In this document: positions 1-31,784 of the stretch, piece after piece | Position numbering within the stretch: position 1 is the first letter of the stretch | Layout of the letters: every line of letters begins with the position of its first letter | Assembly: GCF_002854065.1 (NCBI RefSeq) | Contig: NZ_CP024147.1 | Source of the DNA: Escherichia coli | Lineage (GTDB): Bacteria > Pseudomonadota > Gammaproteobacteria > Enterobacterales > Enterobacteriaceae | Length of the DNA stretch: 64,000 nt | Strand: one strand, 5' to 3' | Program-made: the position numbers and the translations under genes | Notes under the pieces: generated by a model | The model's input: only the letters and a program-made list of their open reading frames with translations | What the model was told of the DNA's origin: nothing | Database searches by the model: none

Positions 1-163
1 AACCAGACCGGGAGGAATGTTAGCCCCGCGCCGTCGTTAACCAAATCCCACGCCAGGGGAACAGACTGGCGGACCTTCAAAGACGGTCGCACACCGTGTT
101 TGACATAATTTATTGTTTTTTGCTTGCTCTTATTATTGCAGCCGTTAGGGTAATGACTCCAAC

Positions 164-667
164 TTATTGATAGTGTTTTATGTTCAGATAATGCCCGATG
201 ACTTTGTCATGCAGCTCCACCGATTTTGAGAACGACAGCGACTTCCGTCCCAGCCGTGCCAGGTGCTGCCTCAGATTCAGGTTATGCCGCTCAATTCGCT
301 GCGTATATCGCTTGCTGATTACGTGCAGCTTTCCCTTCAGGCGGGATTCATACAGCGGCCAGCCATCCGTCATCCATATCACCACGTCAAAGGGTGACAG
401 CAGGCTCATAAGACGCCCCAGCGTCGCCATAGTGCGTTCACCGAATACGTGCGCAACAACCGTCTTCCGGAGACTGTCATACGCGTAAAACAGCCAGCGC
501 TGGCGCGATTTAGCCCCGACGTATCCCCACTGTTCGTCCATTTCCGCGCAGACGATGACGTCACTGCCCGGCTGTATGCGCGAGGTTACCGACTGCGGCC
601 TGAGTTTTTTAAATGGCGGAAAATCGTGTTGAGGCCAACGCCCATAATGCGGGCGGTTGCCCGGCAT
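164..667 (-). CDS. insB: IS1 InsB (C-terminal part of InsAB' transposase, made by -1 frameshift)
   Basis: 167-aa ORF overlapping insA 3' end in the -1 frame; A6C slippery motif present. Confidence 0.9.
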
Positions 668-861
668 CCAACGCCATTCATGGCCATATCAATGATTTTC
701 TGGTGCGTACCGGGTTGAGAAGCGGTGTAAGTGAACTGCAGTTGCCATGTTTTACGGCAGTGAGAGCAGAGATAGCGCTGATGTCCGGCAGTGCTTTTGC
801 CGTTACGCACCACCCCGTCAGTAGCTGAACAGGAGGGACAGCTGATAGAAACAGAAGCCAC
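586..861 (-). CDS. insA: IS1 InsA (transposition repressor / N-terminal part of InsAB' transposase)
   Basis: 91-aa [25 protein letters not shown]... recognised as IS1 InsA. Confidence 0.93.
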
Positions 862-988
862 TGGAGCACCTCAAAAACACCATCATACACTAAATCAGTA
901 AGTTGGCAGCATCACCAGCTTTACTAATATATTGCAGCTGGACCGCTTACCCTGAATATTCAGGGTAAGCGTGAGAGTTAAAAAAGAA

Positions 989-3268
989 TTACAGCGGTTG
1001 GGTTTGCGCTTCAACCACGGCCAGCGCCACCATGTTGACGATACGACGTACCGATGCGATCGGCGTTAACACGTGAACCGGTTTCGCCACGCCCATCAGC
1101 ACCGGACCGACAGTCACACCTTCCGAGCTGGAAACGCGCAGTAAGTTGTAACTAATGCGGGCAGCTTCCATGTTTGGCATTACCAGAATATTGGCAGAAC
1201 CTTTCAAAGGGCTGTCCGGCATACGGTCGTTGCGAATCGCTTCCACCAGCGCTGCATCGCCGTGCATTTCACCATCAATCATCAGTTCTGGCGCACGTTC
1301 CCTGACCAGTTCCAGCGCCTGACGCATTTTGCTCGACGACGGACAGTCAGAAGAACCAAAGTTGGAGTGCGACAACAGAGCAACGCGCGGCTCAATACCA
1401 AAACGACGGACAGTTTCTGCCGCCATCAAGGTGATCTCCGCCAGCTCTTCTGCGTCTGGTTCGTCATTGACGTAGGTATCGGCAATAAAGGTGTTACCAC
1501 TCGGCAGCAGCAGCGCGTTCATTGCACCTGCGGTGTGAACGCCATCGCGATAACCAAAGACATTTTTCACCACGCTAAAATGTTCATGATAATCACCCAC
1601 CGTACCGCAAATCATTGCATCGGCTTCGCCACGCTGAACCATGATCGCGCCGATCACTGTCGGGTTACTGATCAACGCCCGCTGCGCCTGTTCCTGAGTG
1701 ACGCCGCGACGCTTCATGATCTGGAAGTATTCGGTCCAGTACTCTTTAAAGCGCGGATCGGATTCGTTATTGACGATCTCAAAATCAACGCCCGCTTTGA
1801 TCTGCAAGCCCAGTTTCTGAATGCGCATTTCGATCACGTTCGGACGACCGATAAGGATCGGTTTCGCCAGTCCCAGCGTTACCAGTTCCTGAGTGGCATG
1901 TAGAACGCGCGCCTCTTCCCCTTCCGGCAGAACTACGCGCTTCGGCGCTTTGCGAGCCTGGGAGAAAATCGGCTTCATAAACAGGTTGGTTTTGTAAACG
2001 AACTCAGTCAGCTTGTCGATGTAGACGTCGAAATCAGCAATCGGACGCGTCGCCACGCCCGACTCCATCGCCGCTTTCGCGACCGCAGGAGCGATCTTAA
2101 CGATCAAGCGCGGATCAAACGGTTTTGGAATGATGTATTCCGGACCAAAGCTCAGATCCTGATCGCCATACGCTGAAGCCACCACTTCGCTCTGTTCCGC
2201 ATGGGCCAGTTCTGCAATCGCGCGTACCGCCGCCAGTTTCATCTCTTCGTTGATGGCGGTTGCGCCAACGTCCAGCGCGCCACGGAAGATGAACGGGAAG
2301 CAAAGGACGTTGTTGACCTGGTTTGGATAGTCAGAACGACCGGTGCAGATGATGGCATCCGGACGCACTTCTTTCGCCAGCGGCGGCAGAATTTCCGGTT
2401 CCGGGTTCGCCAGCGCCAGGATCATTGGCGCTCGAGCCATTTTCTTCACCATTTCCTGGGTCAGCACTTTCGGGCCGGAACAGCCGAGGAAAATATCCGC
2501 GCCTTCAATCACATCATCGAGGGTACGTTTGCCGTCATCCACTACCGCATATGCGGCTTTGGTTTCCGCCATGTTTGGCTCACGGCCCTGATAGATAACG
2601 CCTTTTGAATCGCAAACCACGATGTTATGTTTTTGCAGACCCAGCGCGACCAGCAGGTTCATACAGGCGATTGCTGCAGCACCCGCGCCGGAAACCACCA
2701 TACGCACGTCAGAGATGTTTTTCTCCACCACGCGCAAGCCGTTGAGGATGGCGGCAGTGCTGATGATTGCCGTGCCGTGCTGATCGTCGTGGAATACCGG
2801 AATATTCATCCGCTCGCGCAGTTTCTGTTCAATATAGAAACATTCTGGCGCTTTAATGTCTTCGAGGTTGATTCCGCCGAAGGTCGGTTCGAGCGCAGCG
2901 ACGACTTCAATAAATTTGTCCGGGTCGAGTTCATCAACTTCAATGTCAAATACATCAATCCCGGCGAATTTCTTAAACAGAACGCCCTTGCCTTCCATCA
3001 CCGGTTTGCCTGCCAGCGCGCCAATGTTGCCTAACCCCAGCACCGCCGTACCGTTAGAGATCACCGCCACCAGGTTACCGCGCGCGGTATATTTGTAGGC
3101 TTTTAACGGGTCTTTTTCGATTTCAAGACAAGGTGCGGCAACGCCTGGTGAGTAGGCCAGCGCCAGATCGCGCTGCGTTGCCAGAGGCTTGGTTGGAGAA
3201 ACCTGGATTTTCCCTGGAACTGGAAATTCATGGAAATCAAGTGCACTTTGTTTTAACTGGTCATCCAT
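989..3268 (-). CDS. maeB: NADP-dependent malic enzyme (with phosphotransacetylase-like C-terminal domain)
   Basis: 759-aa [26 protein letters not shown]... recognised as MaeB; length matches. Confidence 0.95.
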
Positions 3269-10621: not shown

Positions 10622-12322
10622 GTGATTGTTAAACGACCCGTCTCGGCCAGTCTGGCCCGGGCCTTTTTTTACATTGTGCTGCTGTCGATTCTTTCCACGG
10701 GTATCGCTCTGCTAACTCTGGCGAGCAGTTTGCGCGACGCTGAGGCTATCAATATTGCCGGATCGCTGCGTATGCAGAGTTACCGCCTGGGCTACGACTT
10801 GCAAAGTGGCAGTCCACAACTCAATGCACATCGCCAGTTATTTCAGCAGGCACTGCATTCACCGGTATTAACCAACCTCAACGTCTGGTATGTGCCAGAG
10901 GCAGTAAAAACTCGCTATGCGCATCTGAATGCTAACTGGCTGGAGATGAATAATCGTCTCAGCAAGGGCGACTTGCCGTGGTATCAGGCCAATATTAATA
11001 ACTATGTTAATCAGATAGACCTGTTCGTGCTGGCTTTACAGCACTACGCTGAACGCAAAATGCTGCTGGTGGTGGCGATTTCCCTGGCTGGCGGCATCGG
11101 TATTTTCACGCTGGTCTTTTTTACTTTGCGCCGCATACGCCATCAGGTGGTTGCCCCGCTGAATCAGCTGGTTACCGCCAGTCAGCGTATTGAACACGGA
11201 CAGTTCGACTCGCCACCGCTGGATACCAGCCTGCCGAATGAGCTTGGCCTGCTTGCAAAAACCTTTAACCAGATGTCGAGCGAGCTGCATAAATTGTACC
11301 GTTCGCTGGAGGCGTCAGTAGAAGAAAAGACCCGCGATCTCCACGAGGCCAAGCGTCGTCTGGAGGTGTTGTATCAATGTTCGCAGGCGCTGAACACCAG
11401 CCAGATTGATGTGCATTGTTTCCGCCATATTTTGCAGATTGTTCGCGACAATGAAGCGGCTGAATATCTGGAGTTAAATGTCGGTGAAAACTGGCGGATT
11501 AGCGAAGGGCAACCAAACCCGGAATTGCCGATGCAGATTTTACCGGTGACAATGCAAGAGACGGTTTACGGCGAACTGCACTGGCAAAATAGTCACGTTT
11601 CATCATCAGAACCGCTGCTTAACAGCGTTTCGTCGATGCTGGGACGCGGTTTGTACTTTAATCAGGCGCAGAAGCATTTTCAGCAGTTATTGTTGATGGA
11701 AGAACGTGCAACCATCGCCCGCGAATTGCACGACTCGCTGGCTCAGGTACTTTCTTACTTACGTATCCAGTTGACGTTACTTAAGCGTTCGATACCGGAA
11801 GATAACGCCACCGCACAAAGTATCATGGCCGATTTTTCCCAGGCGTTGAATGATGCTTATCGGCAGTTACGCGAGCTGTTGACTACTTTTCGCCTGACGC
11901 TGCAGCAGGCGGATCTCCCCTCCGCGTTGAGGGAAATGCTGGATACGTTACAAAATCAAACCAGCGCCAAACTGACCCTCGACTGCCGTCTGCCAACCCT
12001 GGCACTGGATGCGCAAATGCAGGTGCATTTGTTGCAAATTATTCGCGAAGCGGTGCTGAATGCGATGAAGCACGCCAACGCCAGCGAAATCGCCGTCAGT
12101 TGCGTCACCGCGCCGGACGGCAATCACACGGTTTATATCCGTGATAACGGGATTGGTATCGGTGAACCGAAAGAACCCGAAGGTCATTATGGTCTGAATA
12201 TCATGCGCGAACGCGCGGAACGGCTAGGTGGGACGCTGACTTTTTCACAACCTTCCGGCGGCGGTACGTTAGTGAGTATTAGCTTTCGCTCTGCGGAGGG
12301 TGAGGAAAGTCAGTTAATGTAA
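10622..12322 (+). CDS. narQ: Nitrate/nitrite sensor histidine kinase NarQ
   Basis: ORF-track start is GTG 10607; I recall NarQ beginning MIVKRPVSASLA (GTG 10622, 566 aa); HAMP and histidine kinase regions recognisable. Confidence 0.9.
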   Translation: MIVKRPVSASLARAFFYIVLLSILSTGIALLTLASSLRDAEAINIAGSLRMQSYRLGYDLQSGSPQLNAHRQLFQQALHSPVLTNLNVWYVPEAVKTRYAHLNANWLEMNNRLSKGDLPWYQANINNYVNQIDLFVLALQHYAERKMLLVVAISLAGGIGIFTLVFFTLRRIRHQVVAPLNQLVTASQRIEHGQFDSPPLDTSLPNELGLLAKTFNQMSSELHKLYRSLEASVEEKTRDLHEAKRRLEVLYQCSQALNTSQIDVHCFRHILQIVRDNEAAEYLELNVGENWRISEGQPNPELPMQILPVTMQETVYGELHWQNSHVSSSEPLLNSVSSMLGRGLYFNQAQKHFQQLLLMEERATIARELHDSLAQVLSYLRIQLTLLKRSIPEDNATAQSIMADFSQALNDAYRQLRELLTTFRLTLQQADLPSALREMLDTLQNQTSAKLTLDCRLPTLALDAQMQVHLLQIIREAVLNAMKHANASEIAVSCVTAPDGNHTVYIRDNGIGIGEPKEPEGHYGLNIMRERAERLGGTLTFSQPSGGGTLVSISFRSAEGEESQLM

Positions 12323-26690: not shown

Positions 26691-28708
26691 TGGATGCCCT
26701 GCAATTATTAACCTGGTCGCTGATCCTCTATCTGTTTGCCAGTCTGGCTTCGCTGTTTTTACTCGGTCTGGACAGACTGGCTATTAAGCTTTCCGGCATC
26801 ACATCGCTGGTGGGCGGCGTGATTGGCATTATCAGCGGAATTACGCAATTACATGCAGGCGTAACTTTAGTCGCCCGTTTTGCCACCCCTTTTGACTTTG
26901 CCGATTTAACCCTGCGAATGGATAGCCTCTCGGCATTTATGGTGCTGGTTATCTCCTTGCTGGTGGTGGTTTGTTCGCTCTATTCATTGACTTATATGCG
27001 CGAATACGAGGGCAAAGGCGCGGCGGCGATGGGCTTCTTTATGAATATTTTCATCGCATCGATGGTTGCCCTGCTGGTGATGGACAACGCTTTTTGGTTC
27101 ATCGTGCTGTTTGAAATGATGTCACTGTCTTCCTGGTTTCTGGTCATTGCCAGGCAGGATAAAAGGTCGATCAACGCTGGCATGCTCTACTTTTTTATCG
27201 CCCACGCCGGATCGGTGCTGATAATGATCGCCTTCTTGCTGATGGGGCGCGAAAGCGGCAGCCTCGATTTTGCCAGTTTCCGCACGCTTTCACTTTCTCC
27301 GGGGCTGGCGTCGGCGGTGTTCCTGCTGGCCTTTTTCGGTTTTGGCGCGAAAGCCGGGATGATGCCGTTGCACAGCTGGTTGCCGCGCGCTCACCCTGCC
27401 GCACCATCGCACGCTTCGGCGTTGATGTCTGGCGTAATGGTCAAAATCGGTATTTTCGGCATCCTGAAAGTGGCGATGGATCTGCTGGCGCAAACGGGTT
27501 TGCCGCTGTGGTGGGGCATTCTGGTGATGGCGATCGGCGCAATCTCCGCGCTCCTGGGCGTGCTGTATGCGCTGGCGGAACAGGATATCAAACGGCTGCT
27601 GGCCTGGAGTACCGTCGAAAACGTCGGCATTATTTTGCTGGCAGTCGGTGTGGCGATGGTCGGTCTGTCACTGCACGACCCGCTGCTCACCGTGGTTGGA
27701 CTGCTCGGCGCACTGTTTCATCTGCTCAACCATGCGCTGTTCAAAGGGCTGCTATTTCTCGGCGCGGGCGCGATTATTTCGCGTTTGCATACCCACGACA
27801 TGGAAAAAATGGGGGCACTGGCGAAACGGATGCCGTGGACAGCCGCAGCATGCCTGATTGGTTGCCTCGCGATATCAGCCATTCCTCCGCTGAATGGTTT
27901 TATCAGCGAATGGTACACCTGGCAGTCGCTGTTCTCACTAAGTCGTGTGGAAGCCGTAGCGCTACAACTTGCGGGTCCTATTGCTATGGTAATGCTGGCA
28001 GTCACTGGTGGGCTGGCAGTAATGTGCTTCGTCAAAATGTACGGTATTACTTTCTGTGGTGCGCCGCGCAGTACACACGCTGAAGAGGCACAGGAAGTGC
28101 CAAATACGATGATCGTCGCCATGCTACTGCTCGCGGCACTCTGCGTATTAATTGCGCTTAGTGCCAGTTGGCTGGCACCGAAGATAATGCATATTGCCCA
28201 TGCGTTTACCAATACCCCTCCCGTCACTGTCGCCAGCGGAATAGCACTTGTACCCGGCACGTTTCATACACAGGTCACCCCCTCATTACTGTTGCTGTTA
28301 CTACTGGCGATGCCTTTGCTGCCTGGCCTTTACTGGCTGTGGTGTCGTTCGCGCCGCGCAGCGTTTCGTCGCACAGGAGATGCCTGGGCATGCGGCTACG
28401 GCTGGGAAAATGCGATGGCCCCGTCAGGCAATGGCGTGATGCAGCCGCTGCGTGTGGTCTTTTCTGCGCTATTTCGTCTACGACAACAGCTCGACCCTAC
28501 GCTGAGGCTAAATAAAGGCCTTGCGCACGTCACCGCCAGGGCTCAGAGCACAGAACCCTTCTGGGATGAGCGGGTGATCCGCCCCATCGTGAGCGCCACC
28601 CAACGGCTGGCCAAAGAAATACAGCATCTGCAAAGCGGCGACTTTCGTCTCTATTGCCTGTATGTGGTTGCCGCACTGGTTGTGCTGCTAATCGCTATTG
28701 CCGTCTAA
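26690..28708 (+). CDS. hyfB: Hydrogenase-4 membrane subunit HyfB (NuoL/MrpA antiporter-like)
   Basis: 672-aa polytopic membrane ORF; start overlaps hyfA stop (taATGg). Confidence 0.93.
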   Translation: MDALQLLTWSLILYLFASLASLFLLGLDRLAIKLSGITSLVGGVIGIISGITQLHAGVTLVARFATPFDFADLTLRMDSLSAFMVLVISLLVVVCSLYSLTYMREYEGKGAAAMGFFMNIFIASMVALLVMDNAFWFIVLFEMMSLSSWFLVIARQDKRSINAGMLYFFIAHAGSVLIMIAFLLMGRESGSLDFASFRTLSLSPGLASAVFLLAFFGFGAKAGMMPLHSWLPRAHPAAPSHASALMSGVMVKIGIFGILKVAMDLLAQTGLPLWWGILVMAIGAISALLGVLYALAEQDIKRLLAWSTVENVGIILLAVGVAMVGLSLHDPLLTVVGLLGALFHLLNHALFKGLLFLGAGAIISRLHTHDMEKMGALAKRMPWTAAACLIGCLAISAIPPLNGFISEWYTWQSLFSLSRVEAVALQLAGPIAMVMLAVTGGLAVMCFVKMYGITFCGAPRSTHAEEAQEVPNTMIVAMLLLAALCVLIALSASWLAPKIMHIAHAFTNTPPVTVASGIALVPGTFHTQVTPSLLLLLLLAMPLLPGLYWLWCRSRRAAFRRTGDAWACGYGWENAMAPSGNGVMQPLRVVFSALFRLRQQLDPTLRLNKGLAHVTARAQSTEPFWDERVIRPIVSATQRLAKEIQHLQSGDFRLYCLYVVAALVVLLIAIAV

Positions 28709-28718
28709 GGAAATCACC

Positions 28719-29666
28719 ATGAGACAAACTCTTTGCGACGGATATCTGGTCATTCTTGCGTTAGCACAGGCCGTGATTCTGCTGATGCTAACCCCACTTT
28801 TTACGGGTATTTCCCGGCAGATACGCGCGCGAATGCACTCCCGCCGCGGACCGGGGATCTGGCAGGATTATCGCGATATCCACAAACTGTTTAAACGCCA
28901 GGAAGTTGCGCCGACATCTTCAGGTCTGATGTTCCGCCTGATGCCGTGGGTATTAATCAGCAGCATGCTGGTGCTGGCGATGGCCCTACCACTATTTATT
29001 ACCGTTTCCCCTTTTGCGGGCGGCGGCGATCTGATCACCCTTATCTATCTTCTTGCCCTGTTTCGTTTTTTCTTTGCTCTTTCAGGGCTGGATACCGGAA
29101 GCCCGTTTGCGGGAGTCGGTGCCAGTCGCGAGTTGACGCTCGGCATTCTGGTCGAACCCATGCTCATTCTCTCACTGCTGGTATTGGCGCTGATAGCGGA
29201 TTCCACGCATATCGAGATGATCAGCAATACGCTGGCGATGGGCTGGAACTCGCCGCTAACCACCGTACTGGCGTTACTGGCCTGTGGTTTTGCCTGCTTC
29301 ATTGAGATGGGAAAAATTCCCTTTGATGTTGCTGAAGCAGAACAGGAATTACAGGAAGGCCCGCTGACAGAATATTCCGGTGCCGGGCTGGCGCTGGCGA
29401 AATGGGGGCTGGGGCTGAAACAGGTCGTGATGGCAGCACTGTTTGTGGCCCTGTTTCTGCCCTTTGAGCGCGCGCAAGAACTTTCTCTCGCCTGCCTGCT
29501 GACTTCACTTGTCGTTACGCTGCTCAAGGTTTTGCTGATTTTTGTACTGGCCTCAATCGCAGAAAACACGCTGGCACGCGGGCGTTTTTTACTCATTCAC
29601 CATGTGACCTGGCTTGGCTTCAGCCTTGCTGCGCTTGCATGGGTCTTCTGGTTAACCGGTCTGTAA
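28719..29666 (+). CDS. hyfC: Hydrogenase-4 membrane subunit HyfC (NuoH-like)
   Basis: Start set at MRQTLCDGYLVILALAQ (315 aa). Confidence 0.92.
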   Translation: MRQTLCDGYLVILALAQAVILLMLTPLFTGISRQIRARMHSRRGPGIWQDYRDIHKLFKRQEVAPTSSGLMFRLMPWVLISSMLVLAMALPLFITVSPFAGGGDLITLIYLLALFRFFFALSGLDTGSPFAGVGASRELTLGILVEPMLILSLLVLALIADSTHIEMISNTLAMGWNSPLTTVLALLACGFACFIEMGKIPFDVAEAEQELQEGPLTEYSGAGLALAKWGLGLKQVVMAALFVALFLPFERAQELSLACLLTSLVVTLLKVLLIFVLASIAENTLARGRFLLIHHVTWLGFSLAALAWVFWLTGL

Positions 29667-29682
29667 GGAGCACTGACGGAAT

Positions 29683-31122
29683 ATGGAAAATCTTGCTCTG
29701 ACGACGTTAATGCTGCCTTTTATCGGCGCACTGGTCGTTTCGTTTTCGCCACAACGTCGGGCCGCCGAATGGGGGGTTTTGTTCGCCGCGCTGACCACGC
29801 TGTGCATGTTGTCGCTGATCTCCGCGTTTTATCAGGCCGATAAAGTTGCCGTCACGTTGACGTTGGTCAACGTGGGGGATGTGGCATTGTTTGGCCTGGT
29901 CATTGATCGCGTGAGTACGCTGATTCTGTTTGTGGTGGTGTTTCTCGGTTTGCTGGTCACGATCTACTCCACGGGTTATCTGACGGATAAAAATCGCGAA
30001 CACCCGCATAACGGCACGAATCGTTATTACGCATTTTTGCTGTTGTTTATCGGCGCGATGGCGGGACTGGTACTCTCCTCGACGCTGCTCGGTCAGTTGT
30101 TGTTTTTTGAAATTACGGGCGGCTGCTCCTGGGCGTTGATCAGTTATTACCAGAGCGATAAAGCACAGCGTTCAGCACTAAAAGCGTTACTTATCACTCA
30201 TATCGGCTCGTTGGGGTTGTATCTTGCCGCCGCCACGCTGTTTTTGCAGACCGAAACGTTTGCGCTTAGCGCGATGAGCGAGTTACACGGCGACGCACGT
30301 TATCTGGTTTATGGCGGCATCCTGTTTTCCGCGTGGGGGAAATCGGCCCAGCTACCGATGCAAGCGTGGCTACCGGACGCAATGGAAGCGCCAACACCGA
30401 TCAGCGCCTATCTCCACGCCGCATCGATGGTGAAAGTGGGCGTTTACATTTTTGCCCGCGCCATTATCGACGGCGGCAATATCCCGCATGTGATTGGCGG
30501 CGTTGGCATGGTCATGGCGCTGGTCACCATTCTTTATGGCTTCCTGATGTATTTGCCACAGCAGGATATGAAGCGGTTGCTGGCCTGGTCGACCATCACT
30601 CAACTTGGCTGGATGTTCTTCGGCTTGTCGCTCTCCATCTTCGGCTCGCGGCTGGCGCTGGAGGGCAGCATCGCCTACATCGTCAACCACGCGTTCGCTA
30701 AAAGCCTGTTTTTCCTTGTAGCAGGTGCGCTGAGTTACAGCTGCGGCACGCGCTTGTTGCCGCGTCTGCGTGGCGTATTGCACACCCTGCCGTTGCCAGG
30801 CGTGGGTTTCTGCGTGGCAGCGCTGGCGATTACCGGCGTACCGCCGTTCAACGGCTTCTTCAGTAAATTCCCGCTGTTTGCTGCCGGTTTTGCGTTGTCA
30901 GTGGAGTACTGGATCCTGCTGCCCGCCATGATTCTGCTGATGATTGAATCGGTCGCCAGTTTCGCCTGGTTTATTCGCTGGTTTGGTCGCGTCGTCCCCG
31001 GCAAACCGAGCGAGGCCGTCGCCGATGCCGCACCGCTGCCAGGGTCAATGCGCCTGGTGCTGATTGTACTGATTGTGATGTCGCTGATTTCCAGCGTAAT
31101 CGCCGCGACCTGGTTGCAGTAA
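29683..31122 (+). CDS. hyfD: Hydrogenase-4 membrane subunit HyfD (antiporter-like)
   Basis: 479-aa membrane ORF, NuoM/N-like. Confidence 0.92.
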   Translation: MENLALTTLMLPFIGALVVSFSPQRRAAEWGVLFAALTTLCMLSLISAFYQADKVAVTLTLVNVGDVALFGLVIDRVSTLILFVVVFLGLLVTIYSTGYLTDKNREHPHNGTNRYYAFLLLFIGAMAGLVLSSTLLGQLLFFEITGGCSWALISYYQSDKAQRSALKALLITHIGSLGLYLAAATLFLQTETFALSAMSELHGDARYLVYGGILFSAWGKSAQLPMQAWLPDAMEAPTPISAYLHAASMVKVGVYIFARAIIDGGNIPHVIGGVGMVMALVTILYGFLMYLPQQDMKRLLAWSTITQLGWMFFGLSLSIFGSRLALEGSIAYIVNHAFAKSLFFLVAGALSYSCGTRLLPRLRGVLHTLPLPGVGFCVAALAITGVPPFNGFFSKFPLFAAGFALSVEYWILLPAMILLMIESVASFAWFIRWFGRVVPGKPSEAVADAAPLPGSMRLVLIVLIVMSLISSVIAATWLQ

Positions 31123-31133
31123 GGAGATGATGA

Positions 31134-31784
31134 ATGACCGGTTCTATGATCGTAAATAATCTGGCGGGACTGATGATGCTGACATCGCTGTTTGTGATTA
31201 GCGTCAAAAGCTATCGCCTGTCATGCGGATTTTACGCCTGCCAGTCGCTGGTGCTGGTGTCTATTTTCGCCACTCTCTCGTGCCTGTTCACCGCAGAGCA
31301 ACTGCTGATCTGGTCCGCCAGCGCCTTTATCACCAAAGTGCTGCTGGTACCGTTAATCATGACTTACGCTGCACGAAATATTCCCCAGAACATCCCGGAA
31401 AAAGCGTTATTCGGTCCGGCAATGATGGCACTGCTCGCGGCGTTAATTGTCCTGCTTTGCGCATTTGTCGTTCAGCCCGTGAAGCTACCGATGGCTACCG
31501 GACTGAAACCGGCGCTGGCGGTGGCGTTAGGTCATTTTCTGCTTGGCCTGCTGTGCATTGTTAGCCAGCGCAATATCCTGCGGCAAATTTTTGGTTACTG
31601 CCTGATGGAAAACGGCTCCCATCTGGTGCTGGCGCTTCTAGCCTGGCGTGCACCGGAACTGGTGGAAATTGGTATCGCTACCGACGCCATCTTCGCCGTC
31701 ATTGTGATGGTGTTACTGGCAAGAAAAATATGGCGTACCCACGGCACGCTGGACGTGAACAACTTGACCGCGCTGAAGGGATAA
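31134..31784 (+). CDS. hyfE: Hydrogenase-4 membrane subunit HyfE
   Basis: 216-aa membrane ORF in operon position. Confidence 0.9.

Follow-up and report, generated by a model that had tools for sequence, protein, structure and literature searches.

The first 148 nucleotides of the stretch of Escherichia coli DNA analysed here (64,000 nt, the window) are, very probably, a stump from the right part of a CPZ-55-family element, consisting of the 3′ end of a tape-measure gene and the start of a conserved module, bounded by IS1 and lacking 13,027 bp by comparison with the intact arrangement. What this sequence is, in which frame it is read, where the two junctions lie, how much DNA is missing and how the left junctions of two sister genomes are nested are direct observations. 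The features at this end of the window are as follows:

1-40, plus strand (frame 2): 3′ end of the tape-measure gene, with TRPGGMLAPRRR encoded at 2-37 and the TAA stop at 38-40
41-148, no strand assigned: truncated start of a conserved module, the first 108 nt of roughly 300 nt, cut by IS1
149-916, minus strand: intact IS1 (IS1B-like), 768 bp, with inverted repeats at 149-171 and 894-916
164-667, minus strand: insB′, 167 aa
586-861, minus strand: insA, 91 aa
917-988, no strand assigned: rest of the maeB-eutS intergenic region (72 nt), with a palindrome at 944-971 close behind the maeB stop; the side towards eutS is deleted
989-3268, minus strand: intact maeB (NADP-dependent malic enzyme), the chromosomal anchor to the right of the deletion

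A megablast search with positions 1-148 gave matches in 46 of 5,426 complete E. coli genomes, the best at 99.3% identity and none of them exact. The matching places examined lie just past a long ORF and, where the flanks were fetched, between eutB and eutA; the match of strain 13TMH22 (L001) occupies 12001-12148. The tape-measure protein of the window lineage was predicted by joining the 697 N-terminal residues from the genome CUWW06 (L003) to the 29 C-terminal residues from 13TMH22, and this predicted protein was found exactly in 132 blocks of a public assembly collection. Six of the contigs (L013-L018) coincide with the window from position 1 to positions 176-273 with 0 mismatches, the IS1 junction included, and end inside IS1, as draft assemblies stop at repeats. 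They add 12,141 bases to the left, which contain eutR-K-L-C-B, intZ, seven small ORFs and the tape-measure gene. An exact scan for the junction among the GTDB species representatives returned 0 matches.

The gene that ends at 38-40 is predicted to encode a tail length tape-measure protein, a label that rests on PHROGs and tblastn. Base 1 of the window is the last base of the Ser codon preceding TRPGGMLAPRRR, and the corresponding 726-aa ORF of 13TMH22 (L001, 9860-12040) ends at the equivalent of window base 40 with ESTRPGGMLAPRRR followed by the stop; the same end of the 726-aa ORF is present in the six exact extensions. This protein matches PHROG 1538 over residues 1-455 (E 9e-103) and phrog_1107 over residues 412-725 (E 1.7e-57), so the homology reaches its last residues, and tblastn relates it to annotated tape-measure proteins of Cronobacter, Citrobacter and Salmonella siphophages (32-36% identity, E 4e-35). 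The Pfam model TMP_2 scored 19.5 bits, below its curated cut-off of 30.2, PhageMin_Tail gave a weak hit, and no NCBIfam profile matched the 726-aa protein; because TMP_2 falls below threshold and NCBIfam offers no match, RefSeq mostly carries the gene as a ‘hypothetical protein’. Like the tape-measure proteins of siphophages (PHROG 1538/1107; for example, that of Cronobacter phage ENT47670), it shows strong profile matches over its whole length, C-terminus included, whereas its gene resides in an element about 10 kb long in which neither tail nor head nor lysis genes are recognisable around it. The two small ORFs upstream of it (95 and 76 aa) have no family match, no other tail gene could be recognised around it, and none was found downstream in any variant examined.

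The 3′ end of the gene behaves as a coding sequence under constraint. The C-terminal motif RPGGMLxxRRR and the position of the stop that follows it are kept in all nine homologues aligned, among which the last 157 nt of the gene diverge by a pairwise mean of 0.286. The differences within window positions 2-37 fall 85, 36 and 192 times on the first, second and third codon positions of frame 2, a third-position bias, and dN/dS over the last 100 codons is 0.17 between the window lineage and MB19. A preliminary description of the window had proposed that a gene cut off at the window edge might have its 3′ end in this flank, which was right in kind, although it placed the gene in frame 1 with a stop at 109-111 instead of in frame 2 with a stop at 38-40. 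Its other proposal, a gene fragment orphaned by a rearrangement associated with IS1, holds insofar as the stretch is bounded by such a rearrangement, but the tape-measure gene is complete in the extended contigs.

The element that carries this gene sits at a well-defined chromosomal site. In 13TMH22 it lies between eutB and eutA and comprises intZ, an HTH gene, several unknown genes, the 726-aa ORF, two unknown genes and yffS. In the window lineage, the six extended contigs pass from the eutR-K-L-C-B genes into a gene for a 401-aa integrase, which PGAP names intZ in L001-L003. The counterpart of K-12, the cryptic prophage CPZ-55 (intZ, yffL-yffS), and its site have been described (PMC6379469). 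The two share the same eutB/eutA site, an integrase end (eutB-intZ) with about 93% DNA identity and, in the undeleted 13TMH22, a yffS/eutA end that is 94% identical. On the other hand, the DNA in the middle is unlike that of K-12: between the integrase and the tape-measure gene only short patches match the K-12 cargo yffL-yffS, K-12 has neither a tape-measure gene nor any match to 1-148, and the right end, yffS and attR included, is deleted in the window lineage. Pfam and PHROGs recognise the integrase and an AlpA-like HTH protein among the other ORFs of the element, and nothing else. The K-12 gene order, with eutS beside maeB, had also made eutS or the eut promoter a candidate for the DNA to the left of IS1; the translations do not fit, and megablast leads to the CPZ-55-like element.

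Elements of this family (L001 4975-14582; L006 2364-12416; L015 4128-12181) contain an intact tape-measure gene of 726-790 aa as their sole recognisable virion gene, together with the integrase and the AlpA-like HTH gene. In the variant of MB19 (L006) these are joined by an HNH endonuclease and a small-terminase-like gene, a combination that resembles a satellite gene set.

The element that interrupts the stump at position 149 has the length and ends of IS1, with terminal inverted repeats of 23 nt each that are 78% complementary. An A6C frameshift site (TTTAAAAAAC) is present on the minus strand at about 603-612; PGAP annotates the identical IS1 of L002 and L003 with ‘programmed frameshift’, and the same element in L022 has reported DDE_Tnp_IS1, Zn_ribbon_InsA and HTH_Tnp_IS1 domains. 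A simple IS1 insertion is flanked by a direct target-site duplication of 8-9 bp, and there is none here: the left flank reads AGCCGTTAG and the right one AGCTTTACT. As this absence is expected if IS1 has mediated a deletion, it was not counted against the identification. A 9-nt repeat, TATTGCAGC, at 134-142 and 930-938 was considered as a target duplication or microhomology and discarded, as it lies away from the IS1 ends and about one such repeat would be expected by chance, by our own estimate. To the right of IS1 come maeB and talA, and the remainder of the window is core chromosome, collinear past the hyf operon as far as ppk/ppx. In unrelated E. coli genomes, the eutS-maeB spacer bears IS1 at several nearby positions, which suggests a local hotspot of insertion.

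The extent of the loss was read from 13TMH22. Window position 148 corresponds to position 12148 of L001 (2,998,636 of the 13TMH22 record), and window position 917 to position 4109 of L004 (2,985,608 of the record), 72 nt past the maeB stop, with eutS starting at 4330 of L004; the 13,027 bp that separate these points in 13TMH22 are absent between 148 and 917 of the window. They comprise the rest of the element (yffS included), eutA-H-G-J-E-N-M-D(pta)-T-Q-P-S and the greater part of the eutS-maeB spacer, in which the eut promoter region lies. Two close relatives share the right end of this deletion. Among complete genomes CUWW06 comes closest to the window, with 99.99% identity over 9,952 bases, and strain 100416 is 99.96% identical over about 10 kb; the junction between IS1 and maeB is the same base for base in all three, and their left IS1 junctions differ, as located on L001:

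12148: the window
11951: CUWW06, 197 bp further left
8446: strain 100416, 3,702 bp further left

The window is the least-deleted state of the three. In CUWW06 (L003 6909-9005) the deletion end-point falls inside the tape-measure gene and creates a 698-aa ORF in which the tape-measure protein is fused to IS1 sequence. The window-type state occurs in 132 blocks of the assembly collection and the CUWW06-type fusion in 118, and since both are present in more than 100 blocks, they mark established sub-lineages.

Regarding the origin of the deletion, IS1 would first have inserted at one of the two junctions, and its intramolecular transposition (adjacent deletion) would then have removed neighbouring DNA. 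The right IS1 end is fixed and the left end-points are variable and nested among close relatives. Adjacent deletions by IS1 classically leave this pattern, in which one end of the element stays constant and the end-points at the other are nested, and the shared right junction with nested left junctions fits such deletions. The formation of deletions by IS1 was reportedly a subject of classical work by Reif and Saedler in 1975, in the gal region. The present case resembles the classical ones in its intact IS1 at the deletion point, in the lack of a target duplication and in the fixed end with nested end-points opposite, and differs from them in that the event is read from sequence rather than observed as it happened, and in that the ancestor was not found. 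A synthetic junction representing the ancestral IS1 insertion, with its 9-bp duplication and an intact eutS, had no counterpart among the 5,426 complete genomes; the full-length matches in a single piece were about 87% identical with some 21 extra nucleotides, and the matches, in one piece or in two, correspond to IS1 insertions at other nearby sites. As no precursor was found, we infer the order of events and the mechanism.

The lack of a target-site duplication is a recognised mark both of recombination between insertion sequences and of adjacent deletion (PMC11708052). Homologous recombination between a copy of IS1 that followed the tape-measure gene and a second, in direct orientation, downstream of maeB is an unlikely origin of the junction, even though it would leave the same product, one IS1 with no duplication and the intervening DNA lost (PMC11708052), and even though IS1 occupies the eutS-maeB spacer at several sites in other strains. 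With three close genomes showing three left junctions and one right junction, recombination would need three separate IS1 insertions in the same orientation on the left, and no genome with IS1 at the left site was found.

IS1, tape-measure proteins, CPZ-55 and deletions mediated by insertion sequences are all well known, and the case is one of ordinary genome erosion by insertion sequences. Its consequences are chiefly two: a widespread lineage would have lost 12 of the 17 eut genes together with the eut promoter region, and would accordingly be predicted not to use ethanolamine, and in its close relatives IS1 would still be eroding the neighbouring cryptic element. For annotation, the left edge of the window is better described as a prophage tape-measure 3′ end and an IS1 deletion junction than as an unknown gene; otherwise the distinction matters little.

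The remaining 108 nt of the stump, between the tape-measure stop and IS1, belong to a module whose conservation is out of proportion to that of the gene before it. Its mean pairwise divergence is 0.024 in 41-148, as against the value given above for the last 157 nt of the gene, and elements that share only about 40% identity in their tape-measure proteins agree in the module to 97.6-98.7%. The drop in divergence, from 28.6% to about 1-2%, falls exactly at the tape-measure stop codon (window 38-148; L001 12041-12340). For positions 36-148 and the module of L001, Rfam gave no match, nothing resembling a terminator or a promoter was detected, and the predicted RNA folding is unremarkable (fold z-score of -0.8). 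A search for the module in phage genomes gave no match, and one fragment of 4.8 kb, from an element of this kind, came up in a scan of IMG/VR. In most genomes 41-148 is unannotated; in MB52, MB19 and OW1E2 (L005, L006 and L009), PGAP places here a hypothetical ORF of 86 or 106 aa that starts at the GTG of 96-98. The module also holds a hydrophobic ORF of 31 aa, MRRLIYLVFMLFAIGQAIIFITMLICLMLFG (L001 12213-12308), which the IS1 deletion has removed from the window. None of the small ORFs downstream of the tape-measure gene has a Pfam or NCBIfam match. Positions 41-148 are treated here as a truncated remnant without an assigned function, and the whole of 1-148 would have no function as a unit.

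A more speculative reading, to which we give a low probability, is that the module of about 300 nt starting at window position 41 is a functional unit, for example a leader followed by the gene of a putative 31-aa membrane peptide (MRRLIYLVFMLFAIGQAIIFITMLICLMLFG), and that the CPZ-55 family would perhaps consist of small satellite-like elements, with an intact tape-measure gene as their sole virion gene and, in some members, HNH and small-terminase-like genes in addition. If so, the IS1 deletion would have disabled this unit in the window lineage. It is quite unlikely that 96-148 is instead the 5′ end (18 codons from the GTG at 96) of a real small gene cut by IS1, in which case it would be the orphaned fragment of the preliminary description: this ORF has the PGAP annotation in three genomes and the high conservation of the DNA in its favour, but a 2-nt insertion in a T-run of AR_0061 (L008) shifts the frame right after the start, its length and C-terminus vary (86 versus 106 aa) where the DNA diverges, it has no Pfam or NCBIfam match, and the 31-aa hydrophobic ORF that overlaps it in another frame appears to be an equally good or better candidate, the substitutions being too few for a coding test.

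The two open frames on which the preliminary description had based its reading are chance ORFs. Plus frame 1 is indeed open from position 1, as had been reported, and continues through 105 (35 codons from the window edge), with its TAA at 106-108 and not at 109-111; the minus-strand frame, described as open across most of the stretch, is so across all 48 codons of 1-148 when read from 146 downward. Plus frame 2 contributes just 12 codons to the window before its TAA, a reminder that short frames left open by a window edge may be misleading: here the real gene was the one of 12 codons, in a frame that had not been listed. Leftward extension had been proposed as a check, stop codons just upstream in all frames being the mark of a non-coding stretch; with the exact extension L015 joined to the window, such stops appear in frames 1 and 3, but frame 2 stays open over hundreds of codons:

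Plus frame 2: 741 open codons, ending with the TAA at 38-40
Plus frame 1: 50 open codons, with an upstream stop at -47 to -45
Plus frame 3: 15 open codons
Minus frame: 76 open codons, from inside IS1 (stop at 207-209) to the stop at -22 to -24

As a null model, the 148-mer (G+C content of 51%) was shuffled 20,000 times; 51% of the shuffles left 35 or more codons open from the edge in a plus frame, 25% left a minus frame fully open, and 13% did both. The peptides of frame 1 and of the minus frame show no conservation where the DNA diverges among the nine homologues, in which a 2-nt insertion (AR_0061, L008) and two 1-nt deletions (EFF60, L011) shift both frames. Neither of them combines a long ORF in the extension with a conserved protein, as a protein-coding gene would. 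To take plus frame 1 (position 1 to the TAA near 106-111) for the 3′ end of a genuine gene that the window edge truncates is hardly credible despite its 35 open codons from the edge, since the stop 47 nt upstream in the exact extension leaves it 50 codons in all, it runs out of frame across the 3′ end of the tape-measure gene, its peptide varies where that gene diverges and is shifted by the 1-nt deletions of EFF60, an equally long frame arises in about half of the shuffles, and no genome has it annotated. Just as remote is the minus frame (148 to 1) as a real gene, or as the 3′ part of a gene whose start was removed by IS1, for although all of its 48 codons are open and its equivalent in 13TMH22 has 99 aa from a GTG, it is never annotated and overlaps the 3′ end of the tape-measure gene in antisense, indels shorten it to 64 codons in AR_0061 and 87 in EFF60, its C-terminal part varies freely along with the diverged tape-measure sequence, the start seen in 13TMH22 is lost in the window, where the frame begins inside IS1, and a quarter of the shuffles give a minus frame as open.

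Two minor sequence differences accompany these results. Window position 102 is a G unique to the lineage, present in the six exact-match contigs (6/6), where all nine homologues (9/9) have an A. This G creates a TTGACA at 100-105, which was considered as a promoter element and set aside, as no -10 hexamer follows at a spacing of 16-18 nt. Much farther to the right, the window and CUWW06 differ at 28631-31367, from the 3′ end of hyfB to the 5′ end of hyfE: these 2,737 bp are absent from CUWW06, which has an IS26 in their place, while the window has no IS26 at this site, and the two are otherwise 99.97-99.99% identical over 49 kb.
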